In this document: positions 2,445 to 39,028 of the stretch, piece by piece | How positions within the stretch are numbered: the stretch's first letter is position 1 | Layout of the letters: the number at the start of each line of letters is the position of its first letter | Source of the DNA: Chloroflexota bacterium | GTDB taxonomy: Bacteria; Chloroflexota; UBA11872 | Reading direction: 5' to 3' | DNA length: 39,250 nt | Assembly (NCBI GenBank): GCA_028875175.1 | Contig: JAPPFO010000090.1 | Span: 876-40,125 of the forward strand | Notes under the pieces: generated by a model | What the model saw: only the letters and a program-made list of their open reading frames with translations | Database searches by the model: none | What the model was told of the DNA's origin: nothing | Program-made: the position numbers and the translations under genes

Positions 2445-2455
2445 GGGCCGCTGAC

Positions 2456-5792: not shown

Positions 5793-5902
5793 CCTGCGGG
5801 TTGCACACACCCTCACGGTAGCCGATTTCGGGCGACGAACACGCGACAAGCCGCCGCCGGGCGCGTAGTCTCACCGGACGACGCGAGGGGCTCGAGACAC
5901 CA

Positions 5903-8022: not shown

Positions 8023-8067
8023 GCTCGGATACGATGCGGCAGGAGCCGCGCTCCGGGGGATGACGAC

Positions 8068-9399
8068 ATGGCAACCGCGCCGTTGAGAGTTGGATTTGTG
8101 GGTTGCGGCGGGATTTCCCGCCTATACACGGACATCTACTTGGGTCTCCACGAGTTGGCGCAGGTCGTCGCCGTGGCGGATCTGGTCCCAGAGTTGGCAC
8201 GCGATCGGGCTGAGGGACTGACGCACGGTTACCGAGCCGAAGCCGCGCGCCAGCACGCCATTGCCACGGGCGCCCGCAGCGAGGCCGAGCGAGACGACGC
8301 GCTGGCCAGGGCCGAGTCGGCCGAAGACGCCGCCTCGAACTCGATCCAGCGGTTTTCGAGTCATACCGAACTGCTGGCCGGATCCGATGTGGATGCCATC
8401 GTTCTCCTTACGGCGCCCTCCGTCCGTGGTGGGCCGACGGTTGAGGCCGCCGTGCAGGGGGTGCACGTCTTCACGCAAGGTCCAATGGCTCGCAGCGTGG
8501 AGGAAGCCGACGCCATGCTGGACGCGGCCGAAGCCTCGGGCATCAAGCTACACGTGCAAGTCGGTTCGCGCTACAGCCGCGGCATGCGGCACGCGCAGCG
8601 CGCGGTGGCCAGCGGCTTGATGGGCCAGATGGCCATGGCGAAGGTTGAGCTGAACAACTTCCGGCCGCAGTCCCCGTACTTCCGATCCACCCACTGGCAT
8701 GGGACCTGGGACGGCGAAGGCGGCACGTCGGTCTTCCATCACGGGCGCTACGTCATCGATCCGTTTCTGTACGTGGTTGGCTCGCCGATTGTGGAAGTGA
8801 CGTCTTACGCGGGCGCGATGCTGCGGCACATCGAGACCGATGACATGACGCTTTCGCTGGTGAAGTTCGCCAACGGAGCTCGCGGCGTGGTGCAGTCCTC
8901 GCTGCTGTATCACACCAATCCGCTAACCCCGACGTTTCGGATTGAGGTTATCGGCAGCGAGGCTTCGATGGTTCTCCACCAGGAATACACACATCCAGAT
9001 ATACCAACGGTGATGCTTGGAAACCGAGAGAACGGCTGGGAAGCCGACGTGAAGTTTGGGTCAAACCACGACCCGTCATTGGTTCAGCGGCTGGAGGCGC
9101 TGGAAGCCGAGGTGTCCGACGCCCCCGTGCGCGCCAGCGAGATGTACCAGAGCCAGATCTGGTTGGAGTCAATCCTGGAGGATTCGTCCACCCCCGCGCC
9201 ATTGCGCGTGCCGCATCACCACGCCGAATTCACACGTGCCGTGTACAAGTCGCACGAAACCGGCGCAACCGTCACGCTGCCGCTGGCTAAGGACGATCCC
9301 TTTTATACGTTTGAAGGGCGTCTGACTCACGGGCGGAAGCTTCCTGAAGACGACCCACCGCCGACGGGCGAGCTCCCGCGTCGCATGAGAGGCAGCTGA
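8068..9399 (+). CDS. Divergent Gfo/Idh/MocA-like oxidoreductase (paralogue 5) with Ala/Arg/Glu-rich insert and QGP in place of EKP
   Basis: ORF track 8068..9399. LRVGFVGCGGIS, VVAVADL, DAIVLLTAPS, GIKLHVQVGSRY. The position of the EKP motif reads TQGPMA (nt 8476-8484). About 35 extra residues lie between strand 2 and the ELLA helix. GGGGGA 8 nt upstream of the ATG. Confidence 0.75.
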   Translation: MATAPLRVGFVGCGGISRLYTDIYLGLHELAQVVAVADLVPELARDRAEGLTHGYRAEAARQHAIATGARSEAERDDALARAESAEDAASNSIQRFSSHTELLAGSDVDAIVLLTAPSVRGGPTVEAAVQGVHVFTQGPMARSVEEADAMLDAAEASGIKLHVQVGSRYSRGMRHAQRAVASGLMGQMAMAKVELNNFRPQSPYFRSTHWHGTWDGEGGTSVFHHGRYVIDPFLYVVGSPIVEVTSYAGAMLRHIETDDMTLSLVKFANGARGVVQSSLLYHTNPLTPTFRIEVIGSEASMVLHQEYTHPDIPTVMLGNRENGWEADVKFGSNHDPSLVQRLEALEAEVSDAPVRASEMYQSQIWLESILEDSSTPAPLRVPHHHAEFTRAVYKSHETGATVTLPLAKDDPFYTFEGRLTHGRKLPEDDPPPTGELPRRMRGS

Positions 9400-9458
9400 C
9401 CACGTAAGACTGACTCGCTGGCACGCGTCGCGCACCAATTGTCGGGCTAACCCACCAA

Positions 9459-9480
9459 ACGCGTGCTGTGGTGCACGCGT
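9459..9480. terminator. Stem-loop between convergent gene ends (possible bidirectional terminator)
   Basis: ACGCGTGC (9459-9466), 6-nt loop, GCACGCGT (9473-9480), within the 87-bp gap between the stops at 9399 (+) and 9487 (-). No U-tract. GCACGCGTCGC also occurs at 9421-9431. Confidence 0.3.
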
Positions 9481-9486
9481 CGCCCG

Positions 9487-10902
9487 CTAATACGCACCCC
9501 GACCACGCGCCACGACCCAGAGGGTGCGCAGCAGGATGGTGAGGTCGAGCAGCGGCGAGTAGTTCTGGATGTAGTAGAGGTCGTATTCGACGTTTTCGTG
9601 CAGAGGGAGTTCGCTGCGGCCGCTTACCTGCCACCAGCCGGTGATCCCCGGAAGCACCGCCAATCGCTGTCGCTGCCAGGACTCATACTGCTCAACGACC
9701 CACGGGAGTTCCGGGCGCGGCCCAACCAGGCTCATTTCGCCGCGCAGCACATTCCACAGTTGGGGGAGTTCGTCGAGACTGGTCCGGCGAAGGAAGCGGC
9801 CGACGCGGGTCACGCGCGGATCGTTCAGCGGTTTGTACACCGCGTTGACGGCAGCGCCACCCTGGAGAGCGGCTTCCTGCCGGCTCTCGGCATCCGGGAC
9901 CATCGTGCGTAGCTTGAACATGGTGAACATTCGGCCGGTCTCACCAACGCGTCGCTGAGCGAAGACGACCGGACGTCCACCGTCCAGGAAGACGGCCAGC
10001 GCCAGGACTGCGAGCACCGGCGCCATCAGCACGAGCGAGACGCTGGCCAGAACCAGATCGAATACTCGCTTGACGAATCGATCGAATCCCGTGATTACGG
10101 GCGCACGCACGCTGATCAGAGGCAGGCCCCACACGTCCTCTGCCATGGCCCGGCCGGCCATGAGATGAAACACATCGGGGACCAGCCGGACTCTGACAGG
10201 AACGCTGTCCAGTGCCACAACTATTTCGCGAATCCGCTCGTGGGCGTGCATTGGCAACGCGATCAGGACGTCGTCCACTTCATAGCGGTCAATCAGATTC
10301 TCGAGCTCGTTACTTGCTCCCAGCACCGGGGCCTCGTGGATCTCTTCGCCGCGTTTATCCGGATCGTCGTCGGCGAATCCGATGACCTGGAATCCGGACC
10401 AGGGACGTTCACGAATCATGGCCGCCACCCGTTCGCCGACCGGTCCGGCGCCGACCACCAGCACCCGAGTCGCGCCGCGGCCGGAGATGCGACGACTGCG
10501 CATCACGAGGTTGAGTAGCCACCGGAGATTGATAAGCAGCAGCGCATCCAGGGCAATGAAGTAAAGGAACAACAGTCGCGAGAGGAATTCGACTTTGAGG
10601 ACAAAGAAGGCCGCAAAAAGGACGACGGTGGCAAAGATGATGGCCGGAATCAGTACGCGGATTTCGTCCACGACTCGCAGCAGCCGCCGGTGGTCGTAGA
10701 GATGGACCATGCGGAAGAAGAAGGCCCAGACGAATCCGACGACCACGTACTCGCGGACGGTGAGCCAGGAGAGCAGGCTGGCATCGCCAGCGCCGATCGG
10801 CAGGGTATGCCGCAGGACATCCGCCAGGAAGAGGGCCAGCAGCGTGAGCGCGATATCGACAACGGCCAGGGCGCCGCCAAAGAGACGCGCGCGCTCCCTC
10901 AC
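9487..10902 (-). CDS. Initiating polyprenyl-phosphate glycosylphosphotransferase (WbaP/EPS-type bacterial sugar transferase)
   Basis: ORF track 9487..10902. N-terminal TM helices, central Rossmann-like VLVVGAGPVG domain, C-terminal sugar-transferase signature KRVFDLVLAS...MFKLRTM...NDPRVTRVGRFLRRTSLDELPQLWNVLRGEMSLVGPRP. Confidence 0.9.
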   Translation of the reverse strand: MRERARLFGGALAVVDIALTLLALFLADVLRHTLPIGAGDASLLSWLTVREYVVVGFVWAFFFRMVHLYDHRRLLRVVDEIRVLIPAIIFATVVLFAAFFVLKVEFLSRLLFLYFIALDALLLINLRWLLNLVMRSRRISGRGATRVLVVGAGPVGERVAAMIRERPWSGFQVIGFADDDPDKRGEEIHEAPVLGASNELENLIDRYEVDDVLIALPMHAHERIREIVVALDSVPVRVRLVPDVFHLMAGRAMAEDVWGLPLISVRAPVITGFDRFVKRVFDLVLASVSLVLMAPVLAVLALAVFLDGGRPVVFAQRRVGETGRMFTMFKLRTMVPDAESRQEAALQGGAAVNAVYKPLNDPRVTRVGRFLRRTSLDELPQLWNVLRGEMSLVGPRPELPWVVEQYESWQRQRLAVLPGITGWWQVSGRSELPLHENVEYDLYYIQNYSPLLDLTILLRTLWVVARGRGAY

Positions 10903-15493: not shown

Positions 15494-16564
15494 CTAGGCG
15501 GTGTACGCCGCCAGGCAGCGTTCGGCAACCGCGGACCAGGTAAAGCGGGCTACGACGTGGTCGCGGGCTGCCTGGCCCTGCGTTTGGGCGTGCTGAAGCG
15601 AAGTGGTGAGCGGCGTCAGCTCGCGGCGGAGGGCGTCGGGATCGCTCGGCGGCACGGTCGCGCCACCGACGGACGGGATGATCTCGGGCATGCCGGCCAC
15701 GTCCGAAACAATCGCTGCGGTCCCGCAGGCCATGGCTTCGAGCGGCGCCAATCCGACGAGTTCCGGCAACGCCTGTCGCCGTCCGAGGTAGTCCTCATAG
15801 ACCGACGGCATGACGAAGGCACAGGCCGATCGCAGGGCGGAGATCACCTCGAAGTCCGAAGCTCCCAGGTGGATCCGCACCGGACGGGACGCGGCCTCCG
15901 ATCGAACGAACTCAAGATAGTCGGCGTCGTAGGGGCGCCCGTAAATGTCGAGTGAGGCGCCGACAGGTAGTCCTCGAATCGCAGTCTCGATGCCCTTGTG
16001 GGGCAACAGGCGCCCCACATAGACGACCTGGCCAAGCGTCTTTTTTGTACCGGGCGAGTATTTGGCCGTATCAACGCCTGCGTAGATTACTTCCGTCCGG
16101 CGTCCGACGTAGGGGAGCGTTGCGGCGGCGAATTCGCTCTGCGCCAACTGTCCGTCGATCCAGCGACCGATCCGCAAACGGCGAACCCAGTTCACGCCAC
16201 CGCCACCGTGATCGGTGACATAGACGCGCTTGCCGAGCGGCCGGCCGTTCAGTGCGGCCAGCGCCGTGAGACCGGACCTCGCCTGGTGGCAGTGGACAAC
16301 ATTCGCCCAGCCCAGGGCTCGAAGAAACCCGGGACCGATGGCGTCGTAGGCTCGGCCGCGAAGCTGCCTCCAGGTTCGCTGGACCTCGATGTCGAACCCG
16401 CTGACATGCCGGGTTCCTGGCGGGCCGCCGAATGCGACCAGTCGGGTGGGCGTCTGTTGTCGCATGGCGATTGCGAGCTCCAGCGGATAACGCTCGCCGC
16501 CGCCGCGCACCGACTCGTCGCCGAACCAGGTTGGCGACAGATGCAGGACTCGTAGCTCACTCAC
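15494..16564 (-). CDS. GT4-family glycosyltransferase
   Basis: ORF track 15494..16837. The first 91 codons overlap the upstream methyltransferase gene and are Ala/Pro/Arg-rich. GTG 16564 gives a GTGA overlap with that gene's stop and an N-terminus (M)SELRVLHLSPTWF typical of GT4. C-terminal PSVYEDY...APLEAMACGTAAIVSDVAGMPEI. Confidence 0.8.
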   Translation of the reverse strand: MSELRVLHLSPTWFGDESVRGGGERYPLELAIAMRQQTPTRLVAFGGPPGTRHVSGFDIEVQRTWRQLRGRAYDAIGPGFLRALGWANVVHCHQARSGLTALAALNGRPLGKRVYVTDHGGGGVNWVRRLRIGRWIDGQLAQSEFAAATLPYVGRRTEVIYAGVDTAKYSPGTKKTLGQVVYVGRLLPHKGIETAIRGLPVGASLDIYGRPYDADYLEFVRSEAASRPVRIHLGASDFEVISALRSACAFVMPSVYEDYLGRRQALPELVGLAPLEAMACGTAAIVSDVAGMPEIIPSVGGATVPPSDPDALRRELTPLTTSLQHAQTQGQAARDHVVARFTWSAVAERCLAAYTA

Positions 16565-17379
16565 GCAAGCCGCTCGGCCACGATGAGATAGCCCCCGGGG
16601 TCGCGCACCTCTCGCCGAAATGGCCGCCACAGGAGAGCCGACCACAGGCCAAGCCAGAGCGGCATGGGCAGGAGCCGCCGCCGGTGGAGTCCGCGGAACC
16701 AGTCCAGCACGCGCCGACCGCCAACTCGTCGGACCATCAGTTCGTCCAGCCGCCGCCAGGTTCGCTGGGTTTCGGCCGGGAGATGTCCCCGGCTGGCAAC
16801 GATGGTCAGCCCGCGCTCGGCCAGCCGTTCCGTCCACTCTTCCAGCGACCGATAGTGGTAGTGACCCAGCCGAGCGTTCGTCGACGCCAGCGCGGCGTTC
16901 CCCGAGTCGCGCTCGATTCGCTCGGCAAATGCCGGTGCCGGAACGGTGAATACCAAACGACCGCCGGGCTGGAGCACGCGCGCGGCTTCCGTCACGGCGT
17001 CCAGATCGCTCGGGATGTGTTCCAGCACGCTATGGCTGTAGACCGCGCCGTAGGAGGCGGACGCGACTGGTAGTCGCGTGCCGTCGGCGCGCATGACGGC
17101 TCGATACACCCCTGAGGCTTTTGCGACGCGAGCCTCATTGGCGACGAGCTCAAGCCCGTCCACCGGCCAGTGGGACCGCAGCACCGAGCGCGCGACTTCG
17201 CCGGTGCCGCAGCCCAGGTCGAGGACGGGTGTGGGAAACGTGATGTCACGCAGCATGGCGAACTCGGTCGCCCGCCAGAGCGCCACAGCCGGCTGATGCG
17301 GATGGGCGCGCAGCGCCAGCCGCAGAACATCCCGGTCGCTCCTGGCCACGAGCGCCGTTGGGAAACCACTGTCAGCCAT
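16561..17379 (-). CDS. Class-I SAM-dependent methyltransferase
   Basis: ORF track 16561..17466. ATG 17379 (MADSGFP...) chosen because the longer form overlaps the upstream gene; it leaves an 8-nt overlap ATGGCTGA. VLDLGCGTGEVARS, YGAVYSHSVLEHIP, RVLQPGGRLVFTVP. Confidence 0.8.
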   Translation of the reverse strand: MADSGFPTALVARSDRDVLRLALRAHPHQPAVALWRATEFAMLRDITFPTPVLDLGCGTGEVARSVLRSHWPVDGLELVANEARVAKASGVYRAVMRADGTRLPVASASYGAVYSHSVLEHIPSDLDAVTEAARVLQPGGRLVFTVPAPAFAERIERDSGNAALASTNARLGHYHYRSLEEWTERLAERGLTIVASRGHLPAETQRTWRRLDELMVRRVGGRRVLDWFRGLHRRRLLPMPLWLGLWSALLWRPFRREVRDPGGYLIVAERLA

Positions 17380-18421
17380 GGCGTGAGTCTTCGATGAGCT
17401 GCCGCATGCGCACGGCGTAGGTGTGATCGCGCTCGACGCGGCGCTTGCCGGCCGCGGCGATTGCACGCCGGGCCGACTCGTCGTTCAGGTATCGCTCAAT
17501 CGACGCTGCCGCATCGTCGGCGTCCTGGTATGTAGCAAGTTCCGTCCCAACCTCGAAGAGCTCGGGCATTCGCGCCTTGAAGTCGGTCAGTTGGAACGCG
17601 CCGGCCGCGGGGATCTCGAATGTCCGCATGTTCGGACCTTCGCGCATCTGGGCGTGGTGGATGTTCAACACGATCTTCGCGCTTCGGTAGGCCCGTGCCA
17701 CGGCGGCGGCCGGCAGCAGGGTGAGGCCGCGATGCGCCTCGCGAACCCGATAGCCCGGTTCCAGCTTCTCCCAGCCGCGGCCCCAAACGGCCAGGTTGGC
17801 CCCGGAACGGGCAACGGCTTCCAGGATTTCAACTCGGGACCGGTTCGCCGGCAGATGGCCCATGTTGTGCCGCGCGTCGCCCACGAAGATCACGTCCACG
17901 GGCTCGGCGTCCGCGTCCTGCCCGGTCCAGGCAGCGGGATGGACAGCGTGCGGCATGAACCTCGCCGTAACGCCCCGCGGTTCCAGGTCGGGAGCGTAGG
18001 TCGGATCGGCCAGATAGAACCGGTCGTACAGATGCGCCGCCGCCGTGATGTTGGGAAACCAGCCTGGATCGTCGCCACACCACTGGACGACGGGGCCGCT
18101 GGTGAGGTTACGCAGGCGCTCAATCGTCTCGGGTAGCAGAACCTCGCCCTTGAGAACCAGGGTGAACTCCGGCCGATGCCGCGCGGCAAGCCGGATTACG
18201 TCCAGATTGTCCATCCGCATTGCGTCGAACACTCGCGCGACGTTGAATCGGTCTGGGCCTTTGAGTCGCCGCTGCACGCGCCCCCAGAGCCCAATGGGCC
18301 GTTCCAGCCGCTGGCTGTAGCGGTGCATTCGCACGTCATGCCCAGCGTCTCGCAGGCCCTCAGCGCAGTATTCGATCCACTGTCCGGTGTCCCAGTGCGG
18401 GCCGACGAGCAATACGCGCAT
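17372..18421 (-). CDS. CgeB-type glycosyltransferase (DUF3880 + Glyco_trans_1_2-like)
   Basis: ORF track 17372..18532. ATG 18421 gives MRVLLVGPHW, 7 nt after the upstream stop. VIFVGDARHN, LAVWGRGWE, SAKIVLNIHHAQMREGPNMRTFEIPAAGAFQLTD, RVERDHTYAVRMRQLIE. Confidence 0.8.
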   Translation of the reverse strand: MRVLLVGPHWDTGQWIEYCAEGLRDAGHDVRMHRYSQRLERPIGLWGRVQRRLKGPDRFNVARVFDAMRMDNLDVIRLAARHRPEFTLVLKGEVLLPETIERLRNLTSGPVVQWCGDDPGWFPNITAAAHLYDRFYLADPTYAPDLEPRGVTARFMPHAVHPAAWTGQDADAEPVDVIFVGDARHNMGHLPANRSRVEILEAVARSGANLAVWGRGWEKLEPGYRVREAHRGLTLLPAAAVARAYRSAKIVLNIHHAQMREGPNMRTFEIPAAGAFQLTDFKARMPELFEVGTELATYQDADDAAASIERYLNDESARRAIAAAGKRRVERDHTYAVRMRQLIEDSRHG

Positions 18422-28363: not shown

Positions 28364-29490
28364 GTCGACCCGCGCTCGGCCAACCGGCGATAGGCGGCGG
28401 CATACGCGCCCAGCACCGCGGACTTCTCGAACTGAGCCGTGGCGGCCCGAGCGGCGCGGCCGGCCGCCCGTAGCGCGTCGGAATCGCTCAGCACAGCCCT
28501 TATCAGTTCCGCGCCAGCCGCGGCATCCCAGGGCAGCAACCAGCCGTTGGCCCCGTGGTCAATGGTCTCCGGCATCACGCCGACCGGCGTGGCGAAGACC
28601 GGCGTGGCACAAGCCATGGCTTCCAGGCACACACGCGGACCGCCTTCACTGAGCGACGGAGCAATGAGCGCCTGCATGCGACGGTAAAAATCGGCCAGAT
28701 CGGAGGGACTGTCGAGCCAGTCAATGAATGTGACGCGGTCCAGGATGCCGGTACGCGTCAGTCTGCGTCGCAGCGAGTTGTCTTCTGGCCCCTGGCCGGC
28801 AACGACGAACCGCGCCTGGGAATCCTGCGAAGCAAGGGCAGCGAAGACGTGCGCCACGTAGCCCAGGTTCTTGTTCGCGACCAGGCGTCCAACGAAGCCG
28901 AGAGCAAAGTCCCGAACAACTTCGCCCGGGGCGAATACCTCTCGGTCGATATAGGCCGAGGGCAGGATGAGCATCCGGTCGTGGGGAACACCCCAATCCG
29001 AGAGCAAGTCCGGCACTTCCCGCCGATTGACCACGCGAATGGCGGCCGCGCGGCGTGCGACGCGCGACACATACGCACGGTAGACCAGCTTCGCCAGCGG
29101 CTCCCACCACTGGGCCCGCTTCGGGTGCCCCGGCACGTGGTGGATTTCGCTAACAAAGGGCGTCGCGCAACGACGGGACAGCCACGCGGCCGCCCGACCG
29201 TTGGCGAAGATCCCGTAGTCGTGCGTGACGATCAGGCCGTGACCATGGCGTTGCAGCAGGTCGGCGCCACGGCGTCGCATCCAGGCCGACTGTCGCAGCC
29301 GCGACACGGGTGCCGGTTCCACGTACACGCCCGGAAACGGCTCTGCTTTGCGAGCGCCCGCAGCTCGCGGCGTCAGCACGTCGATTTGATCGAAGTCGGC
29401 CGCAAGGCCGCCCAGCGTGGTGTGAAACGGCCCCTGGCGACCCGTGGTGACATCTCGGTCACCGCTGAGCATCAGCAGCTTTGCGCTCAC
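28360..29490 (-). CDS. GT4-family glycosyltransferase
   Basis: ORF track 28360..29562. GTG 29490 gives a GTGA overlap with the upstream stop and the N-terminus (M)SAKLLMLSGD. APSLSEGGPRVCLEAMACATPVFATPVGVMPE. Confidence 0.8.
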   Translation of the reverse strand: MSAKLLMLSGDRDVTTGRQGPFHTTLGGLAADFDQIDVLTPRAAGARKAEPFPGVYVEPAPVSRLRQSAWMRRRGADLLQRHGHGLIVTHDYGIFANGRAAAWLSRRCATPFVSEIHHVPGHPKRAQWWEPLAKLVYRAYVSRVARRAAAIRVVNRREVPDLLSDWGVPHDRMLILPSAYIDREVFAPGEVVRDFALGFVGRLVANKNLGYVAHVFAALASQDSQARFVVAGQGPEDNSLRRRLTRTGILDRVTFIDWLDSPSDLADFYRRMQALIAPSLSEGGPRVCLEAMACATPVFATPVGVMPETIDHGANGWLLPWDAAAGAELIRAVLSDSDALRAAGRAARAATAQFEKSAVLGAYAAAYRRLAERGST

Positions 29491-30650
29491 GTAGCGGTGC
29501 GCGACGCGGAGCCGGTGACCTCGGAAAGGATCGTCATCGTTTCGTCGACTAGCCGGTCCCACGAAAAGTGATCCAGGCCCTCGGAACCCTCGCGGACGAG
29601 ACGCTGGGCAAGCTCGCGGTCGGTCAGGAGGCGGTTCACGGCGGCCACGAACGCGCGGTGATCGCCGAGCGGCGTTAGCAGCGCGTTGTGCTCGTGCGTG
29701 AGGATTTCACGGTTCCCCCCGATATCCGTCGTCACAATTGGCGTTCCAACCACGCGAGCTTCCACGAGCGTGTGCGAAAGCCCCTCATACGAGGTGTTCA
29801 GCACAAACACGTCGGCGGCGCGCAGATACATGCCAACATCGCGGTGCGGCACCCGGCCCACGAAGCGGACGCGGTCGCCCAGGCCCAGCACCGCGGCAAA
29901 GCGCTCCAGGGCCTGTTGCTCCGGCCCGTCGCCGACGATGGCCAGCACGGAGTCATTCGCAAAGTCCGGCACCATGCGGAGTAGGTCGTCAACCCGCTTC
30001 CAGCCGTAGAGCCGTGACACGGTGCAGACTAATGGCCCTTCAAAGCCAAGTTTCCGCTTAGCCTCCTCGCGCGAAACGTCGATCTCTGGGATCTCGGTCA
30101 GCGCGTTATGGACCACGCGGAGCTTCTCCGGCCTGGCGCCCCAGTTCCGCACGAACCCACCCACGTAGCCGCTGGGAACCACGACCACCGTGGCCAGCGC
30201 CGTATACATCCTCTGGATGAACTGGAACGCTCGAGTCCGCAGCCCGTGACGTGTGCGCTGAAACTCCTCGATGCCCAGCGCCGTCATGCCGCGACGGTGC
30301 GCCGACTCCCAGGCCCAGTCGCCCACGATTTTCAGCACCCGCGGACGACCCGCCAGCAGTGCCGCCAGCGTTGAGGGCGCCTCGATGCCGTTGATGTAGA
30401 CCACGTCGGACTGCAACGCGGCCCGCAAGGTATGCCACCACACCAGGGCGTAGCGCAGCGGCACGGGCGTGTCCCAGGAGACTCGCACAATAGGGAATGG
30501 CGGACGCACCAGGCCCTCGGGATCGTCCGGGCAGACCACCGCCCTGACGTCGTGGCCGCGGTTGTGCAAGGTCAACGCCAGGTTGTAGATGTGCGTTGCC
30601 GGTCCGCCCACGGTTGGCGGAAAGATGTTCGAGACAAAGGTAATGCGCAT
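29487..30650 (-). CDS. GT4-family glycosyltransferase
   Basis: ORF track 29487..30686. ATG 30650 gives MRITFVSNIFPPTVGGPATH. NTSYEGLSHTLVEARVVGTPIVTTDIGGNREI. Confidence 0.85.
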   Translation of the reverse strand: MRITFVSNIFPPTVGGPATHIYNLALTLHNRGHDVRAVVCPDDPEGLVRPPFPIVRVSWDTPVPLRYALVWWHTLRAALQSDVVYINGIEAPSTLAALLAGRPRVLKIVGDWAWESAHRRGMTALGIEEFQRTRHGLRTRAFQFIQRMYTALATVVVVPSGYVGGFVRNWGARPEKLRVVHNALTEIPEIDVSREEAKRKLGFEGPLVCTVSRLYGWKRVDDLLRMVPDFANDSVLAIVGDGPEQQALERFAAVLGLGDRVRFVGRVPHRDVGMYLRAADVFVLNTSYEGLSHTLVEARVVGTPIVTTDIGGNREILTHEHNALLTPLGDHRAFVAAVNRLLTDRELAQRLVREGSEGLDHFSWDRLVDETMTILSEVTGSASRTAT

Positions 30651-30710
30651 TGCTCGGACGCTAGCACCGGGCCACGGACGCGACAACGCCGCGAATTGCG
30701 CTCGCGTGAC

Positions 30711-30726
30711 GGCGGGGCGCCCCGCC
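30711..30726 (-). other. Perfect 16-bp GC palindrome (stem-loop) just downstream of the radical-SAM gene
   Basis: GGCGGGGCGCCCCGCC equals its own reverse complement. It lies 11 nt after stop 30738, inside the 87-nt gap that is the largest break in the minus-strand array. No U-tract. Confidence 0.4.
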
Positions 30727-30737
30727 CCACCTGCCGA

Positions 30738-31859
30738 TCAGTTGCCTGGCGACTCGGTCCCGTTGGTTATGTGCGAACCGTTGGTCCCGACCTGAAGGAC
30801 GGGCAGCGCATCCCCGGTCACCACGCCGCGAGCGCCGGCAAAGAGGTTCCAGGACGAACCGTCCTCCTGCCAGATGGCGTCGCATCCACGGCACAGCTTG
30901 TAGTCATCCAGCTTGCCGCGCACGTGCGCCTCGCGAATCGCGCGATACGCCGGGTTGTTCCAGATGTCCAGCAGCGACTCGTTGGCAAGGTCTCCCATGA
31001 TCTGGTCTTCGCCGAAGTCCGCGCAGCAGGAGGGGACCTTGCCGTCCCAGTAGATCGCCATGGACTTCCAGAGCCAGTTGCAGGGGTAGTAATTCGGGCC
31101 ATGCGGACGCGCGGTGTAGAAGTCGGACGAGTCCATCTGCCCGGCCCAGCCGTGCGCCCAGAACGTGTCCCACTCGTCCACGGGCAATCCGTCAAAGCGC
31201 TGCCGGAAGTGCTCCGGAATCACCGGTGCGGCGCCCTTGGGATAGCTCGAGTCCCAGAGCTGAATCACCTGCATCACGAAGTACGGTTTCGGGCCGGAAC
31301 GCTGCTTTCGCGATTCAAGGAGTCGAAGCACGCGCTCAAGCGTGCGGTCGAACTGCGCGCCCTTGCGCATGACTTCGTAGTGTTCGGGTTCGCCCGAGTC
31401 AAAGCTGATCGTCAGCTTGCTCGGCGCCGCGTCCAGCAACTGCTCAATCTTCTCGTCGCGCAGCAGGGTGGCGTTCGTGTTGATGTGGGCGGCAATCCCG
31501 GCCCGCTCGCAGACCTCGATCATCTCGTAGATGTCCTTGTGCATCAGCGACTCGCCGCGGAAGAACAGGTTGGCCTCCCGCACGAACGGCTTTGCCTCGT
31601 CGATGATCTTGCGGAACAGGCCCATGTCCATGAACGGCTTCTGCTTTTTGAGTTCGTCGGCGAGCACACTCTGCGGACACATGGGACAGCGCAGGTTGCA
31701 GGCGCTGGTCGGCTCGATGTGCAGCTTGAGCGGCCCATAGGGCAACTCGGTCGTGCCGCGCATCCAGTGGTAGGCAAAGCGACTGAGCGACGGCCGGAGG
31801 ATCGCGCGGTGCCGCCGGTACTTAACCAGCAGGTCTTTCGCCTGGCTGATCGAATTCAC
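30738..31859 (-). CDS. Radical SAM enzyme with C-terminal SPASM/twitch-like Cys-rich domain
   Basis: ORF track 30738..31859. CNLRCPMC (CX3CX2C, nt 31677-31700), FFRGESLMH, INTNATLL. C-terminal C-x12-G-x4-C (PCNWLWKSMAIYWDGKVPSCC) and CRGC. GTG start overlaps the stop of the Trm112-like gene (GTGA). Confidence 0.85.
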   Translation of the reverse strand: MNSISQAKDLLVKYRRHRAILRPSLSRFAYHWMRGTTELPYGPLKLHIEPTSACNLRCPMCPQSVLADELKKQKPFMDMGLFRKIIDEAKPFVREANLFFRGESLMHKDIYEMIEVCERAGIAAHINTNATLLRDEKIEQLLDAAPSKLTISFDSGEPEHYEVMRKGAQFDRTLERVLRLLESRKQRSGPKPYFVMQVIQLWDSSYPKGAAPVIPEHFRQRFDGLPVDEWDTFWAHGWAGQMDSSDFYTARPHGPNYYPCNWLWKSMAIYWDGKVPSCCADFGEDQIMGDLANESLLDIWNNPAYRAIREAHVRGKLDDYKLCRGCDAIWQEDGSSWNLFAGARGVVTGDALPVLQVGTNGSHITNGTESPGN

Positions 31860-32086
31860 GAGCTAACGGCTTCCTCGTGCCTCGGGGGAATCGCGTCTTC
31901 CCACAGCATGTTGGGAATCCCGTCCTCGACCCTGTATCGATAGCCGCAAACTGTACAGACGAGAAAGTCGCCCTTGATGCGCAGTACGCCGTCATCGCGC
32001 GGATGATCGTCGTTCACGCAGCGCAGGATCGCCAGGAAGTCGTCTGGAATGAGCGGCGGCGCGGACGTCGCGTCCGAATCAGCCAT
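31856..32086 (-). CDS. Trm112/YcaR-like (UPF0434) mini-protein, 76 aa
   Basis: ORF track 31856..32086. FLAILRCV...LVCTVCGYRYRVEDGIPNMLWEDA matches the Trm112-type zinc-ribbon-like pattern, with the first CxxC knuckle degenerate. AAGGGAG about 13 nt upstream of the ATG. Confidence 0.7.
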   Translation of the reverse strand: MADSDATSAPPLIPDDFLAILRCVNDDHPRDDGVLRIKGDFLVCTVCGYRYRVEDGIPNMLWEDAIPPRHEEAVSS

Positions 32087-32115: not shown

Positions 32116-34374
32116 CTAGAGCATGAAATGTAGCGTGTCAAAGCTAATCAACAGCGCGGCAAACGCGCCAATCGCAGCAACGCGCACTGACCGCACACGG
32201 CGCCCAGATGGCCAGATGCGGCCGGTCAGACCAACCCAAGCCCCGAGCACGGCGAATTGAAGTACCAATAGCAGTCCGCCCACCCAAATAATAAGCATCG
32301 GGTAGGCAAGGAAACCCTCGACGAGGCTCAAGGACCAAAAGTCCAGTCCAAGCCCGTTTTCAGGATGCGACGGAACGGCCTCAATACCGAATCGTGACCA
32401 GGGCGTTCGGCTCAGGGCGTCGGCCAGCCAGTCAGTGCGGTCCGGTGCAAGGAGGTTCATGGCGTCCGCGCGCAGCAGCCAGGCGTGCGCCAGCAAGGGC
32501 GAAAACTGGTAGGCATAAAGGACTGCCGCGTAATCGCCTTCGGGCTGAATCGACGACCACGGCTGGTAGTCAGCACCGCCGTAGATTGCGCCCTTGAGCG
32601 TTACGGAGCCGGCGACTTGTTGCTGGAAGAGGTCCAGGTAGCCCGCGAAGTCCTTGGACACGCCCATGAACTGCACGCCGGCGCTAATCAGCACCGCACC
32701 GGCCAGGGCCGCGCCAGGCAGCCAGGTTCGCGCCCGCTCGACTACCCGTTCGAAAAGCGGCGCACCTACGATCACCAGCAGCGGCAACGCTGGCACCAGG
32801 TAGCGCGGTCCCCAGGCGTTACCGCCGTACCAGACCTGTTTGCGGCTGTAGAGCAACGCATACGCAACCGGAATCGCCAGGAATACGAGCGAACGCCAGC
32901 CATGGCGGCGCACAAACCAGGGCAGTGCGGGCAGCGAGACGAGAAGGATGGGGTTGTACCAGAGCACACCCTTGCCCCAGCTTGTGATCAGTCCGCCAAG
33001 CCCCAGGCCAAACGGCAGCTCCAGCCAGCCGCGCTGCAGGCCGCCGATAAGTTCGTGCACGTACAGGAAGCGGAAATCGAATAGCGTGGCCGCGGCCACC
33101 AGTGCCGGAACCAGCACGACCAGAAACGGGGCCAGGAACAGGAAGACCGGCCGCACCGATTGCCTCAGCGTTGTGCGCCAGGAACCGCCCGAATGTTCGC
33201 CCACGACCAGTCCCGCCACGAGAATGGGCACGGTTATGACGCTGACGTACTTGGTCAGCACCGCCGCGAACGCCGCCAGGCCGGCCAGGGCCACGAAGCG
33301 CAGCCGCCGGGTTGAGCCGTAGACGAGGGAAAGCCACACCGCCGCCAGAAGAAACGTCGTCACCAGCGGTTCGGAGAAGTCGAACTTCGCGTAGGGCCAG
33401 GCCATCGTGCCGACGGCGTAGATCAGCGCGCTGACGACGGCCACCCGCTCGCCGTATTGCAGCCGTCGCAGGATTCGAAAGACCAGCACCACACCAACGG
33501 CCGTAGCCAGCGCGTTGGCCGCCGCCACCCAGATGCGGCGGAAGAACTCGCGATTCTGGCGCTCCGACCAAACTCGTCCGACCCCCGGCCCATCAAGCCA
33601 CGTCCCATCGGGCGTACGCAGCGCCAGACCGTCCACGTAAAAGTTCCCGGTGGGCTGCAGGTAGCTGACTCGCGCCGATGCGAGTTCGCGCGGCGGATCG
33701 AATCGCCACGTCGATCCGTAGTAGTACGCGCGTGCATTGCCGATCTGGCGAGCCACCGGTGGCGGTTGCTCATGCTGAATCCGTGCGCGCACGTCGCCCC
33801 GGTCGTAGGCCCATTCGGCGGTCTCAATGCCGACGCGGATCGGGTGTTCAGTCGTGGTTCCGGCGGCATCGGTGAGATGAAGCCGCGCGATCTCCGTCCC
33901 CTGGGAGAACCCGGCGCTAAGTCCGCTGTGCGACAACAGGACCAGTCTGTCGTAGCTGCCGGGTTCGATTCCAAGCTCGATTTCGTCGGTCACCTCGGGC
34001 CCCCGCGATCCGCCCAGCGGGGGAAAGTTCACCAGCAACACGTCGTGCTCGCCCAACGGAATCCGGTCTCGCTGCGGAGCCGCCTCGGCTAAGGGCTCCG
34101 CGAATGCAACGAATGGCATGAACGCCGTGGGCAAGCCCACGCCCCAGCGGGTGAAATTTCGGTTTTGGTCGCGCAGATAGGCGTGGCCATGATCGACGAT
34201 GACGCTCTTCGCCATCTCGAACGCAAAGGTGCCGTCGGCGCTGTAGCCGCCGCCATTCCGTGCCGCTCCCATGCTCAGCGCGTACAGCGTGAAGGCAAAT
34301 GCAAACAGCAGAAAGGCGGGACGCGCCTGCGCCCAGCGCATCAGGCGCCGCGTGCGCGTCACGCGACGGCCCAC
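32116..34374 (-). CDS. Large polytopic GT-C-like (ArnT/PMT-type) membrane glycosyltransferase candidate with ~180-aa soluble insert
   Basis: ORF track 32116..34374. Basic N-terminus, TM1, loop YSADGTFAFEMAKS, TM2, soluble insert (nt ~33541-34089), then at least 10 TM helices to the C-terminus. Start GTG 34374 or ATG 34341. Confidence 0.6.
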   Translation of the reverse strand: MGRRVTRTRRLMRWAQARPAFLLFAFAFTLYALSMGAARNGGGYSADGTFAFEMAKSVIVDHGHAYLRDQNRNFTRWGVGLPTAFMPFVAFAEPLAEAAPQRDRIPLGEHDVLLVNFPPLGGSRGPEVTDEIELGIEPGSYDRLVLLSHSGLSAGFSQGTEIARLHLTDAAGTTTEHPIRVGIETAEWAYDRGDVRARIQHEQPPPVARQIGNARAYYYGSTWRFDPPRELASARVSYLQPTGNFYVDGLALRTPDGTWLDGPGVGRVWSERQNREFFRRIWVAAANALATAVGVVLVFRILRRLQYGERVAVVSALIYAVGTMAWPYAKFDFSEPLVTTFLLAAVWLSLVYGSTRRLRFVALAGLAAFAAVLTKYVSVITVPILVAGLVVGEHSGGSWRTTLRQSVRPVFLFLAPFLVVLVPALVAAATLFDFRFLYVHELIGGLQRGWLELPFGLGLGGLITSWGKGVLWYNPILLVSLPALPWFVRRHGWRSLVFLAIPVAYALLYSRKQVWYGGNAWGPRYLVPALPLLVIVGAPLFERVVERARTWLPGAALAGAVLISAGVQFMGVSKDFAGYLDLFQQQVAGSVTLKGAIYGGADYQPWSSIQPEGDYAAVLYAYQFSPLLAHAWLLRADAMNLLAPDRTDWLADALSRTPWSRFGIEAVPSHPENGLGLDFWSLSLVEGFLAYPMLIIWVGGLLLVLQFAVLGAWVGLTGRIWPSGRRVRSVRVAAIGAFAALLISFDTLHFML

Positions 34375-35967: not shown

Positions 35968-37325
35968 AACATCTCAATGAACGGATGCAGCTCACGCCCG
36001 TCCAGCGGAGCCAGGCGAGCCTCACGACGCCGACACTGCCACGTGCGCGACCCCACAGTTGCGGCGCTCGTTAGCGCCAACAAGCGCGCAAAGGCCAAAC
36101 GTGCCGCCTCCGCGTTACGCATACCGAGCCCGCGGCGGGCGTCGCCTGCCCCGAATTTCACGGCGGCGGCCGCGTGTTGGGCCACCCACGCCCACGGTGC
36201 GTTCTTGCCCAGCATTCGGAGCTTGCCGAACTCCACATTGCGCACGAACCCTGGGGACCACTCGCGGCTAAGAGCGGCATGTTCATGGCGCACAACCGAG
36301 CTGGGCTCGTACCAAAAGCGCCAGCCACGGCGACGGGCGCGCCAGGCGAGATCGGCATCCTCGTAGTACATGAAGATACCGTCGTCCAGATAGTCCAGCG
36401 CATCCAGCATTGACCGACGGTAGAGAACCGCTGCCCCTTTGGGCGCAAAGATCTCACGAGCCTGGCTGAAGCCCGGCGAGTCCCAGGCCGACCAGGGCAC
36501 GCCTGCCAGCAATTGCGTCCCCCGGTCGCGCATTGAGCCGTCGTCGAGCGGCGCGATGCCCGCACACTCGATAGCCGGCCGCGCCAGGCCAGCCACCAAT
36601 TCGGCCTTGAAATCAAGCTGAACCGTCGTGCGATCACTTCCAATCGGCACCTCGCCCAGCAGATGGTCACCCGCGTGTACGGTGATGGGCACTTTCGCCC
36701 GTCCGTCGCCTGCCGCCACGTCGAGGCGTAGCCACGTCGACGCCCGATCGACGGGTACCGCAAGGGCTGTGCAGCCATCGGTCCAGCGAAACGCCTGGCC
36801 AGACACGTTCAGTTCTACACCATGAGCGCCGCCGGTCACCTCCGCCAACCCGGCCGTCGTCTCCGCGCCAAAGAGTTGGACACCCAGCCGTCGCCGGTCA
36901 GGCGGGGGCGGTTCAAATGTGGCAGTGGTCAGCCTGACGGGAATCCGATCGTGCTGATGCAGCAGCTTGGCCCCTACGCCGCCGGCGATCGGGTCGCCAT
37001 TGAGGCGTGTGACCAGGGGCTCCAGCCAGCCCGGCTCGACCTCCGTGTCTGGATTGAGAAGTCCCACGTAGGGCTCGTCCGCCTCGCGCAATGCCCGATT
37101 GTTGCCGCGCGAGAATCCCAGATTTGCTCCGTTTTCGATCAGCTCTACTTCTGGATACGACTGCTCGATTCGCGCCGGCGATCCATCGCTTGACGCGTTG
37201 TCGACCACCGTTACTCGTAGATCCGAGTAGCGGGTGGCCAGCAATCGCTCAATACATCGCTCGATCCGCCCGGCGCCGTTGTAGTTCAGCACAACGACGC
37301 GGACGGGCGGATAGTCGCTGGTCAT
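35964..37325 (-). CDS. GT2-family glycosyltransferase (WbbL/rhamnosyltransferase-like core) with internal ~125-aa insert
   Basis: ORF track 35964..37325. VRVVVLNYNGAGRIERCIERL, VTVVDNASSDGS, NLGFSRGNN, LLNPDTEV, AAVLYRRSML, FMYYEDADLAWRARRRGW. Insert at aa ~126-250. ATGA overlap with the upstream ABC gene. Confidence 0.85.
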   Translation of the reverse strand: MTSDYPPVRVVVLNYNGAGRIERCIERLLATRYSDLRVTVVDNASSDGSPARIEQSYPEVELIENGANLGFSRGNNRALREADEPYVGLLNPDTEVEPGWLEPLVTRLNGDPIAGGVGAKLLHQHDRIPVRLTTATFEPPPPDRRRLGVQLFGAETTAGLAEVTGGAHGVELNVSGQAFRWTDGCTALAVPVDRASTWLRLDVAAGDGRAKVPITVHAGDHLLGEVPIGSDRTTVQLDFKAELVAGLARPAIECAGIAPLDDGSMRDRGTQLLAGVPWSAWDSPGFSQAREIFAPKGAAVLYRRSMLDALDYLDDGIFMYYEDADLAWRARRRGWRFWYEPSSVVRHEHAALSREWSPGFVRNVEFGKLRMLGKNAPWAWVAQHAAAAVKFGAGDARRGLGMRNAEAARLAFARLLALTSAATVGSRTWQCRRREARLAPLDGRELHPFIEML

Positions 37326-39028
37326 TCCACCCGGATAGAGCGCACGGCAATGCCCAGCGGGCGGGTGTCCGAATCCAGCCCCACTTCGGCCGGCACCAGC
37401 GCGTCGTCAACCTCGATCACCAACTCGTGAGTCTTCGGCGCCGTCACCGGATCCAGCGGAATCACGATGTCCTCGAAGTCCATGCCGTGCAGCCTGAAGG
37501 TGGCGATGTGCCGCCCATCCACGCTGACTCGGCCCTGGGCTTGGGCGCGCCCATGCAGTGGACGACAGGCCGACAGAATCAAGGCGCCCTGGCCAACGTC
37601 CTGACGGAGGTAGGCCACGGAGCGCTCGCTGGTCCAGCGCACTCGAGGCGGCCAGTTTTCCGCCGGGAACCAGCCTTCGCCCAGCCATTCAGCGTCAGGC
37701 GCGCCCATCGCCAGCTTCCCGGGCGGCGGCGTCCAGAACGGACCGGCAGGTTCCGAAAGCATGTCCGGCTGAGCGATCGGCGCCGACGAGGAGCGAAGCT
37801 CATCCGTGGACGGTGCAACGGCTATTCGCCACTGCGACGGCACCACGGCCACGCCGCGCTGGGTGCCCGTCGCCTTCCCCACAAAGAGCGTGATGGCATT
37901 GGGCCACAGGTGGTAGGGATGCAGGCGATCGTCGCCCGGCCACGCGCCCAGCGACAGTTGATAGCTGCCCGGCCCCAGCGGCAGTGGTCCAAGCGAGCAC
38001 TCCACGCGAGTGCGTCCTGGCTGCACGCCGATAGGTCCCCGAGTCGAGGCCGTGGAGGTCTCGTGCATCAGCAAACCGTCGCTGCGACGCACCGCGCAGC
38101 CAACCACCACATCATCGAGATACGCATCTGACTCAAGCTCCATTTGCAGCCGCACAACGCCGCCCGGCAGATAGGCGTAGCTCTCCGTTCCAGTCGCCCC
38201 GTCCGTGGCCACGGCCGCCTGGATGCGAAACGTGTCGCCGCCGAGGTCGGGTGTCGTCTCACTGGGCCCCGTTGGCACCTCCGCTGCTGCGCCCGCCATG
38301 TGCTGTAGGTACTGCTGGATCACGTCGCGCGGGTCCCCCAGAGCGCGGATCTGCCCGCCGTCGATCCAGAGCACCCGGTCGCAGAACCGTCGCACCTGGA
38401 TCGGATCGTGTGACACAAAGACCAACGTGCGCCCACGGGCCTTGATGTCGGCCAGCGCCTCGTAACACTTGGACGTAAAGCGTGCGTCCCCGACCGCCAG
38501 CACTTCGTCGATCAGCAGGATGTCTGGATCAACATTGATGGCGATGGAGAATCCGAGCCGCATAAACATGCCGGACGAGTAGTGGCGAACCGGCGTGTCG
38601 ATAAAGCGTTCCAACTCGGCGAAGGCGACGATGCGGTCGTAGAGCTGCCGCATCTCGTTACGCTCGATACCGAGGAATGAACCGTTCAGGAAAATGTTCT
38701 CGCGACCCGTCAGGTCCGGGTGCATCCCCGCGCCCAGTTCAAGCAGGCCGAAGACCTTGCCGCTCGTCAGGACTTCACCCGCCGTTGCTTCGATCGTGCG
38801 CGCCAACAGCTTCAGAATCGTGGTCTTGCCAGACCCGTTGGGGCCGATGATTCCAAGGGTTTCGCCTTCGGCGACCTGCAGATCAACGCCATCGAGCGCC
38901 CAGAATTCTTCGTGCTCGATCCGTCGTCGGCCAAGCAACGCCAACGCCATGCCCTGCCACGTGCGTGCGGCCTCGTGGCGGATCCTGAAACGCTTGCGGA
39001 TCCCACGAAGTTCAATGGCGGCTGGCAT
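37322..39028 (-). CDS. Wzt/TagH-type polysaccharide-export ABC transporter ATP-binding protein with two-part C-terminal extension
   Basis: ORF track 37322..39028. Walker A GPNGSGKTT, signature YSSGM, Walker B ILLIDEVLAVGD, H-loop FVSHD. These are followed by a Wzt_C-like beta-sandwich (FRIQAAV...GPGSYQLSLGA...ITLFV) and a further ~120-aa module. First gene of the minus-strand array. Confidence 0.85.
   Translation of the reverse strand: MPAAIELRGIRKRFRIRHEAARTWQGMALALLGRRRIEHEEFWALDGVDLQVAEGETLGIIGPNGSGKTTILKLLARTIEATAGEVLTSGKVFGLLELGAGMHPDLTGRENIFLNGSFLGIERNEMRQLYDRIVAFAELERFIDTPVRHYSSGMFMRLGFSIAINVDPDILLIDEVLAVGDARFTSKCYEALADIKARGRTLVFVSHDPIQVRRFCDRVLWIDGGQIRALGDPRDVIQQYLQHMAGAAAEVPTGPSETTPDLGGDTFRIQAAVATDGATGTESYAYLPGGVVRLQMELESDAYLDDVVVGCAVRRSDGLLMHETSTASTRGPIGVQPGRTRVECSLGPLPLGPGSYQLSLGAWPGDDRLHPYHLWPNAITLFVGKATGTQRGVAVVPSQWRIAVAPSTDELRSSSAPIAQPDMLSEPAGPFWTPPPGKLAMGAPDAEWLGEGWFPAENWPPRVRWTSERSVAYLRQDVGQGALILSACRPLHGRAQAQGRVSVDGRHIATFRLHGMDFEDIVIPLDPVTAPKTHELVIEVDDALVPAEVGLDSDTRPLGIAVRSIRVE

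Follow-up and report, generated by a model that had tools for sequence, protein, structure and literature searches.

In the described Trm112 holoenzymes (Trm9, Trm11, Mtq2 and Bud23; Hvo_0019-Trm112, 6F5Z; A. fulgidus Trm11-Trm112, 6ZXW) a small subunit serves a class-I methyltransferase of Rossmann fold, i.e. an enzyme that uses S-adenosylmethionine (SAM), and it is the C-terminal beta4 strand of Trm112 that engages the partner (PMC5372719). For bacteria, the function of Trm112 proteins was stated as unknown in a 2017 review (PMC5372719), and a preprint of July 2026 presented a predicted ML1347-MtrP complex from a mycolate-export locus as the first bacterial extension (bioRxiv 10.64898/2026.07.15.738315). 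Here we report on a Trm112-like gene that overlaps the gene of a radical-SAM enzyme within an envelope-glycan locus of a Chloroflexota bacterium. The window, by which we mean the whole stretch of 39,250 nt that was analyzed (GenBank assembly GCA_028875175.1, contig JAPPFO010000090.1, positions 876 to 40,125 of the forward strand), encodes a mini-protein of 76 amino acids (aa) and, directly after it, an enzyme of 373 aa. We propose that the pair is a two-gene module that would specify a heterodimeric, sugar-modifying radical enzyme of envelope-glycan synthesis, an explanation that we hold, as a whole, with even confidence.

On the side of the enzyme, the closest described system is BtrN of butirosin biosynthesis (PDB 4M7T/4M7S), the founding twitch enzyme, which oxidises a secondary alcohol of 2-deoxy-scyllo-inosamine and carries a Cys4-ligated auxiliary cluster with a proposed role in electron transfer (PMC10337720). 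Together with BlsE, DesII and SpeY it represents the carbohydrate- and cyclitol-modifying group to which we liken the window enzyme. BtrN is not known to require a small partner protein, unlike the pair proposed here. Radical-SAM enzymes that are encoded together with small, non-substrate proteins do exist, e.g. PqqE with PqqD, MftC with MftB and Dph1/Dph2 with Dph3. In those cases, however, PqqD and the RiPP recognition element (RRE; RiPP, ribosomally synthesised and post-translationally modified peptide) are winged-helix peptide binders and Dph3 is a CSL zinc-finger electron donor, whereas the small protein of the window is of the Trm112 zinc-knuckle type and stands in a glycan context.

On the side of the mini-protein, UPF0434/YcaR and ML1347/Rv1684 are likewise stand-alone proteins of ~60-80 aa encoded among cell-envelope genes, but the predicted partner of ML1347/Rv1684, MtrP, is a class-I methyltransferase and not a radical-SAM enzyme. 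With the small subunit of the Trm112 holoenzymes the mini-protein shares family, fold and the retained GIPxML motif, and in both cases the partner, here a proposed one, uses SAM. The holoenzyme clients are Rossmann-fold proteins, whereas the putative partner in the window has the partial TIM-barrel of radical-SAM enzymes. In the literature that we searched, no paper links Trm112/UPF0434 to a radical-SAM enzyme and none describes a pair of this kind, in agreement with an earlier sequence-only reading of the window, which knew of no such pairing. The novelty would thus be twofold: a new class of SAM-enzyme partner for a Trm112-type small subunit, in a putative complex, and what appears to be an uncharacterised, glycan-associated branch of twitch radical-SAM enzymes.

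The mini-protein and the enzyme

Judged by their relatives, both open reading frames (ORFs) are real genes conserved as proteins: at 90% identity they fall into clusters of 18 members (mini-protein, exact sequence included) and 113 members (enzyme, likewise), named 'Trm112 family protein' and 'radical SAM protein' by NCBI. The stop codon of the first overlaps the GTG start of the second in the tetranucleotide GTGA, an arrangement that fits translational coupling, and the two proteins are probably co-translated. Upstream, 29 nt separate the mini-protein ORF from the gene of a 752-aa PMT_2/GT-C glycosyltransferase (stop at 32116), and downstream 87 nt lie between the radical-SAM stop codon and the next gene, a GT4 glycosyltransferase, if the latter begins at the ATG at 30650. 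The sequence-only reading had described the overlap, both gaps and a perfect palindrome in the second of them, and had given for the enzyme the motifs CNLRCPMC, C-x12-G-x4-C and CRGC without a full 7-Cys SPASM set; every one of these details proved exact.

Taken by itself the window mini-protein scores below the cut-offs of the models for its family (17.3 bits against PF03966, gathering cut-off 22; 30 bits against Trm112_arch of NCBIfam, cut-off 77). Its positional orthologues, joined to it by phmmer and hidden Markov model (HMM) searches, exceed the PF03966 cut-off, with 30-39 bits for those of loci L020, L025, L030, L031 and L036 and 27.9 bits for that of L027. A profile built from the orthologues retrieves stand-alone PF03966 proteins almost exclusively: the 120 best matches are all 54-84 aa long, and the few listed matches that have no Pfam assignment are close relatives of the window mini-protein. 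The mini-proteins of the more distant loci even show the textbook UPF0434 pattern LLEILACPxC...WLVC..CGxRYPIxDGIPVML. In agreement with this, an AlphaFold2 (AF2) model of the window mini-protein (pLDDT 72) has UPF0434/Trm112 structures as its top nine Foldseek matches in the PDB (2PK7, 2JR6, 2KPI, 6ZXW_H, 2HF1, 6F5Z, 2JNY), including the archaeal Trm112 proteins of the Trm11 and Hvo_0019 complexes (probability 0.69-0.99, template modelling (TM) score 0.5-0.67); the very small size of the domain keeps the E-values weak (0.06-0.4). One of the matched UPF0434 structures, 2HF1, is annotated as LpxK kinase. On orthologue scores, profile and modelled fold, the mini-protein is a divergent member of the Trm112/UPF0434 family with a predicted Zn-knuckle fold, and its earlier naming as Trm112/YcaR-like is upheld.

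Unlike canonical Trm112, the window mini-protein has lost the CPxC half of the zinc site: in the window clade this knuckle is replaced by C23-VN-D26-DHPRDDG, while C44-x2-C47 and the strand Y51...G56-I-P-N-M-L61 are retained. The zinc signature of the family reads [C/D]PX[C/D]...CX2C, with a spacing of 19-36 residues that is stated for archaeal proteins (PMC5372719). Compared with it, the window sequence (C23-V-N-D26, 17 residues, C44-x2-C47) has no proline and a spacing just under that range. The full CPxC...C..C arrangement occurs only in loci L030-L043, and the other clades are without some of the ligands: the window clade has C23, C44 and C47 plus Asp/His, L019-L025 have two cysteines and L026-L029 one. 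Such unconserved metal ligands fit a structural role. Invariant in the alignments are L21, C23, Y51, P58, M60 and L61, and conservation covers the folded core; the C-terminal tail is variable or absent, with only 2-4 residues left in L026-L029, L031 and L036. The best-conserved strand, GIPNML, is equivalent to the C-terminal strand that pairs with the methyltransferase in crystal structures of Trm112 complexes.

The enzyme matches Radical_SAM (PF04055, residues 48-183, 67 bits, cut-off 29.5) and SPASM (PF13186, residues 260-327, 60 bits). Its cysteines follow the order C54-x3-C58-x2-C61, C260-x12-G273-x4-C278(C279) and C323-x2-C326. Five cysteines thus lie downstream of the core, of which C260, C278, C323 and C326 are invariant in 86 homologues and C279 is conserved only in the close clade. 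These are too few for the 7-Cys SPASM set (CX9-15GX4C...CX2CX5CX3C...C), and the alignment to the twitch domain of BtrN suggests that the PF13186 model detects twitch domains as well. The four invariant auxiliary ligands point to a single auxiliary cluster: by its sequence, the enzyme is a member of the twitch subfamily of the radical-SAM superfamily with one predicted Cys4 auxiliary cluster, rather than a 7-Cys SPASM protein. The sequence-only reading had placed it in the SPASM/twitch group, with a sugar or the lipid-linked glycan as the proposed target, and it is the twitch half of that placement that holds.

Searching with a profile of the enzyme family against the PDB sequences puts BtrN far in front (E 5.5e-30), in two stretches that correspond to the core and the auxiliary domain; C278, C323 and C326 align to 'LPCFEDF' and 'LCKNC' of BtrN. 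BlsE, SuiB, PqqE and DesII follow, and the twitch dehydrogenase SpeY appears lower down. The AF2 model (pLDDT 89, pTM 0.88) gives a similar picture in Foldseek, with BtrN first (4m7t; TM 0.74-0.79 on the target), then SuiB, BlsE, DesII and anSME. With BtrN, BlsE and DesII as top matches in sequence and modelled fold, the nearest characterised relatives of the enzyme are ones that act on carbohydrates or cyclitols and not peptide maturases. The window enzyme shares with BtrN the CX3CX2C motif and four auxiliary cysteines at the same relative positions. In contrast to BtrN, it is ~120 residues longer, owing to an N-terminal helical extension (residues 1-44), an insert at ~200-260 and a C-terminal tail, and it is encoded in an envelope-glycan locus with an ABC exporter rather than in an aminoglycoside cluster. 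An orthologue of BtrN (2-deoxy-scyllo-inosamine dehydrogenase) it is not, given an identity of 15-18% in the structural alignment, the extension and insert, and the lack of aminoglycoside genes nearby; a full SPASM, anSME-like or peptide-maturase assignment was rejected on the cysteine count and the best matches.

The enzyme was also compared with the NCBIfam radical-SAM/SPASM families (W-cofactor maturase, ScmF, NirJ, PqqE, AhbD, BlsE and others), an assignment by HMM that the sequence-only reading had proposed, and no family reached its cut-off: the best score was that of TIGR04317 (96 bits against 380), and all 48 matches were far under their cut-offs and covered the core only. Neither of the two proteins is covered by an NCBIfam model. 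The family to which the enzyme belongs is large, since its profile collects 8,864 clusters at 50% identity (E<=1e-30). Among the best 150 of these clusters, the window clade is represented by one full-length protein, P0025.

Conservation of the pairing across genomes

Scanning one genome per species yielded 80 loci with the enzyme; the mini-protein, and after it an HMM, served as queries against the six-frame ORFs of these loci. They fall into a close clade (L001-L043, 47-94% enzyme identity) and a distant clade (L044-L080, 35-41%). In the close clade the mini-protein adjoins the enzyme in 39 of the 43 loci. Most of these, 33 loci with enzyme identities of 49-94%, have it upstream with the same 4-nt overlap; in two (L030, L036) it is upstream at a gap of 81-115 nt, and in four (L026-L029) it lies 43-45 nt downstream, as an 83-aa form with a predicted helical insert. 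The remaining four loci (L032-L035) have no adjacent mini-protein in the available sequence, and neither have the 37 loci of the distant clade, where one copy was found 6.5 kb off (L056). The co-occurrence check proposed with the sequence-only reading thus has a divided outcome: adjacency is the rule among close relatives and is absent in L032-L035 and among the 37 distant ones. The overlap is seen again in L085/L086, and it is retained while mini-protein identity falls to ~32-40%.

The arrangement persists in different surroundings. In L026-L029 the two genes follow each other in the opposite order, flanked by RuvCAB and a CAAX protease at one end and by a D-serine-dehydratase-like gene and an oxidoreductase at the other. 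L037-L043 have other genes upstream (a PTPS_related membrane protein, an unknown gene, Uma2) with the overlap intact, and in L019-L025 the pair closes the operon, no GT4 gene following it. The inversion and relocation, the change of upstream gene and the position at the operon end show adjacency beyond shared descent. Taken together, the sequence comparisons identify the pairing as a stable two-gene module of one clade within a much larger enzyme family.

All close-clade loci are labelled Chloroflexota except L030 (JBLNDL010000067.1), which is assigned to Sphingomonadaceae. Its locus is nearly identical to that of Chloroflexi UBA6077 (L031), and L030 is probably mis-binned. The downstream copies of L026-L029 (~9178-9431) are Trm112 variants with a single cysteine and an insert of ~30 residues that is predicted to be helical from its sequence pattern. 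In L032-L035 (Thermoflexus/TK10-type) several copies of a short repeated element with the translation ...PLMKIRFAWP... surround the radical-SAM gene (in L032 at 7500-8000 and 9200-9500). Another recurrent setting of bacterial Trm112 proteins is found in Verrucomicrobiae and other bacteria (L083/L084, 3730-4180; L087/L088, 4001-4177), where a Trm112-family gene overlaps a LarC-like (Ni_insertion) gene at the end of the latter and is followed by a gene for a 245-aa GT2.

Gene fusions provide a further link between the enzyme and glycan synthesis. In P0243 (746 aa, Candidatus Omnitrophota, MDP2921174.1) a PMT_2 GT-C domain precedes a relative of the enzyme that shares 32% identity with the window enzyme over residues 2-331; this fusion occurs in two assemblies (L081, 3136-5376; L082, 2956-5196), with a DegT-type sugar aminotransferase, methyltransferases, a GT2, Wzy and asparagine synthase encoded alongside. 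In P0197 a GT4 precedes the enzyme relative. The clusters of P0243 and P0197 are each singletons at 90% identity. These fusions match the kinds of genes that flank the window enzyme and are supportive rather than conclusive; they would put the enzyme and its N-terminal extension at that end of a membrane glycosyltransferase which faces the cytoplasm. In P0229 and P0231 the enzyme is duplicated in tandem. Two other sets of candidates were rejected as fusions, namely enzyme homologues of 400-457 aa, which have low-complexity C-terminal tails only and no Trm112 domain, and P0084, a frameshifted read-through into the GT4 gene.

Proposed role of the pair and competing explanations

The identity of both genes, the class of their folds, the set of cysteines, the conserved coupling and the glycan setting can be read from the sequences and models; by analogy with the systems introduced above, we infer a complex, a substrate and a reaction. 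That the two genes form a functional unit we consider likely; for a physical complex of mini-protein and enzyme we see about even chances. Through the GTGA overlap the mini-protein would be made in step with the enzyme and would serve as its small subunit. It would bind via its ...YxV/IxDGIPxML strand, by beta-strand addition as in Trm112 with class-I methyltransferases, and would stabilise or activate the SAM enzyme, acting neither as substrate nor as electron carrier. In the enzyme, C54/C58/C61 would hold the SAM-binding [4Fe-4S] cluster, and C260/C278/C323/C326 would fully ligate a second cluster. Reductive cleavage of SAM would produce a 5'-deoxyadenosyl radical that abstracts a hydrogen atom from one of the carbons of the sugar, after which the auxiliary cluster would accept the electron, as proposed for BtrN. 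The expected product would be a keto-sugar, either as the end product or as an intermediate on the way to an epimer or amino-sugar formed in a later step. This BtrN-like oxidation or epimerisation is a tentative assignment, to which we give somewhat less than even weight.

The substrate would most likely be an envelope-glycan precursor of the locus, and the lipid-linked sugar handled by the neighbouring GT-C is a candidate in view of the fusions that join enzyme relatives to GT-C and GT4 proteins. A more specific version, speculative and in our opinion unlikely, would have the mini-protein as an obligate activating subunit, with a heterodimer at the membrane that performs O2-independent oxidation or epimerisation of the polyprenyl-phosphate-linked donor of the GT-C, by a logic like that of DprE1/DprE2 in mycobacterial arabinan synthesis. 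If true, this would be the first Trm112 client other than a class-I methyltransferase.

Several observations weigh against the proposed module. Most of the 39 paired loci are non-independent, as they represent a single operon (GT-C, mini-protein, enzyme, GT4) that has been passed on vertically within Chloroflexota. The mini-protein is missing beside the enzymes of L032-L035 and of all 37 distant relatives, so that the enzyme fold does not generally need it. Trm112-family genes overlap unrelated genes elsewhere, e.g. those of LarC or of a 245-aa GT2, and tight adjacency of such a small gene is therefore common, does not always involve one type of partner and is not very specific. The gene-fusion check that the sequence-only reading had called for gave no support either: no Trm112-radical-SAM fusion occurs among the 120 + 150 + 120 listed homologues. 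The pair in the window lacks a coupled gene for a DegT-type aminotransferase or for an obvious keto-reductase. Finally, identity to BtrN is only ~18%, so the type of reaction is drawn by analogy.

Four other explanations were considered. The mini-protein might be an ordinary Trm112 hub that activates class-I methyltransferases, the 301-aa enzyme of the same operon or others, its place beside the radical-SAM gene being a matter of operon hitch-hiking. We regard this as unlikely, but it has real points in its favour. All experimentally known Trm112 clients are class-I methyltransferases (PMC5372719), as is the sole bacterial partner proposed so far, MtrP (bioRxiv 10.64898/2026.07.15.738315); a methyltransferase is present in the window operon, and in L019-L025 and L085/L086 a class-I methyltransferase of 410-451 aa is encoded two genes upstream of the mini-protein. 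However, the nearest methyltransferase of the window lies ~14 kb off and is not orthologous to the L020 enzyme (27% over 98 aa, a generic similarity). At the corresponding position of the window there is no orthologue of the 451-aa enzyme that adjoins the GT-C in L020, and a methyltransferase partner within the transcription unit of the pair was rejected on this ground. In L026-L029, moreover, the pair stands alone, and in L027 neither a methyltransferase nor a glycosyltransferase is found among ten annotated ORFs (from ~6.6 kb upstream to 2.5 kb downstream). The 4-nt overlap with the radical-SAM gene persists across 49-94% identity and differing upstream genes.

That the two genes have no functional relation and are neighbours only by shared descent in one phylum is quite improbable, in our estimate. 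Nearly all paired loci are indeed from Chloroflexota and share operon synteny, and four close loci as well as the distant clade do without the mini-protein. Nevertheless, the adjacency outlasts inversion, relocation out of the glycan operon and a change of the upstream gene, and the overlap stays at exactly 4 nt at mini-protein identities of ~32-40%.

Less credible still is a role of the mini-protein as a rubredoxin-like or Dph3-like metal protein that donates electrons to the radical-SAM cluster. Dph3 is a small metal protein that donates electrons to the radical-SAM enzyme Dph1-Dph2, and the segment CTVCGYRYRVEDGIP matches the first rubredoxin knuckle (CTVCGYIYNPEDGDP) with E ~0.02-0.05. A four-Cys site, however, is present in L030-L043 only, and the matches of the whole protein in sequence and fold are to Trm112/UPF0434 and not to rubredoxin; a rubredoxin-like electron carrier was rejected because the ligands are not conserved.

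A RiPP-type system, with the small ORF as precursor or RRE-like partner and the enzyme as peptide maturase, is very improbable: small precursor ORFs often precede SPASM/twitch radical-SAM genes, SuiB, SkfB and PqqE are among the structural matches, and the mini-protein tail is as variable as RiPP cores often are, but the mini-protein folds as a Trm112 domain, its core conserved and its tail dispensable (so that the peptide-substrate alternative of the sequence-only reading does not apply), the sugar enzymes BtrN and BlsE come out best in sequence and fold, with two domains covered, no PqqD/RRE match is found with Pfam, the N-terminal extension is purely helical in the model, and no peptidase or RiPP exporter is encoded in the window, neighbours and fusion partners being glycosyltransferases.

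The proposed module of mini-protein and radical-SAM enzyme bears on two broader questions. Bacterial Trm112 proteins are widespread, and a coupled, conserved enzyme gene offers a concrete candidate partner for one of them; if confirmed, the pair would extend the idea of Trm112 as an activator from methyltransferases to radical-SAM chemistry. Likewise, a large, unnamed family of BtrN-like twitch enzymes that is tied to glycan loci points to uncharacterised radical chemistry in envelope-glycan synthesis.

The glycan locus and its intergenic elements

The window has a G+C (guanine plus cytosine) content of ~66%, and its nearest relatives are metagenome-assembled genomes of Chloroflexota. No Rfam families and no tRNAs were found in it. 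The pair belongs to a long minus-strand envelope-glycan locus that spans from ~39028 down to 9487 (coordinates of the features in Table 1). It starts with a Wzt/TagH-like ATP-binding cassette (ABC) ATPase with a Wzt_C domain, a GT2, a GT1 and the PMT_2-type GT-C, continues with the mini-protein, the radical-SAM enzyme, three GT4s, a hexapeptide acetyltransferase and an alginate-lyase-like protein, followed by a GT4, a YfhO-like membrane protein, a further GT4 and a Wzx-like flippase, and ends with more glycosyltransferases, a class-I methyltransferase, an NAD epimerase/dehydratase and a Bac_transf priming enzyme.

Table 1. Features of the gene pair and its neighbourhood, in window coordinates
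Feature	Position	Strand	Basis or remark
Mini-protein, 76 aa, ATG 32086 to TGA 31856	31856..32086	-	divergent Trm112/UPF0434 member; contains ...LVCTVCGYRYRVEDGIPNMLWEDA
Radical-SAM enzyme, 373 aa, GTG 31859 to 30738	30738..31859	-	PF04055 + PF13186
GTGA overlap, 4 nt, mini-protein stop over enzyme GTG start	31856..31859	-	
C54-N-L-R-C58-P-M-C61, CX3CX2C motif for the SAM-binding [4Fe-4S] cluster (predicted)	31677..31700	-	invariant or nearly so in alignments
Twitch region with auxiliary C260, C278, C323, C326	30882..31082	-	alignments of 20 and 86 homologues
Codons for G56-I-P-N-M-L61, best-conserved mini-protein strand	31904..31921	-	alignments; P58, M60, L61 invariant
Perfect 16-nt GC palindrome/hairpin GGCGGGGCGCCCCGCC, just 3' of the radical-SAM stop	30711-30726		no T-tract
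Intergenic block CGTTGTC-N17-GGTGCTAGCGTC-N7-ATG before the GT4 gene	30651..30688	-	conserved in L001-L017
Membrane GT-C glycosyltransferase (PMT_2), 752 aa, directly 5' of the pair	32116..34374	-	Pfam; same order in L001-L025
GT4 glycosyltransferase, directly 3' of the pair	29487..30650	-	Pfam; likely start ATG 30650
Class-I methyltransferase, 301 aa, same operon	16561-17466		

The assumed start of the GT4 (MRITFVSN...) is conserved across homologous loci, and a GT4 gene follows the enzyme, at once or after a short distance, in L001-L018 (3.6 kb off in L011), L030-L034 and L036-L043. A GC-rich hairpin is retained after the radical-SAM stop codon in the window (30693-30737) and in L001-L009, i.e. 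in all ten sequences, mostly through conservation of the sequence and with one covarying pair only. Because it lacks a T-tract and shows hardly any covariation, the palindrome was rejected as a structured RNA or terminator.

The intergenic block in front of the GT4 gene is kept in L001-L017 although protein identity is 71-94%, and the GT4 ATG lies ~7 nt past a -10-like element. This block may be an internal promoter (TTGTCG, extended -10 TGcTAGCGT) that gives rise to a near-leaderless GT4 mRNA; a generic sigma-70 scan did not call it. If it is a promoter, the radical-SAM gene would be the last one of the transcription unit upstream.

The Wzt_C domain is carried by the ABC ATPase at 37322-39028. 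In O-antigen systems this domain recognises a chain-terminating modification. By analogy, the glycan of the locus may carry a terminal cap, which might be made by the methyltransferase or by the radical-SAM enzyme. Beside the locus, the left flank of the window (258-9399) encodes four GFO/IDH/MocA oxidoreductases, one of which (258-2444) has an unassigned N-terminal half of 370 aa, as well as a LanC-like protein (4572-5849), a class-III aminotransferase (5903-7285) and a methyltransferase (7282-8022); these genes may constitute a set for sugar or cyclitol modification.

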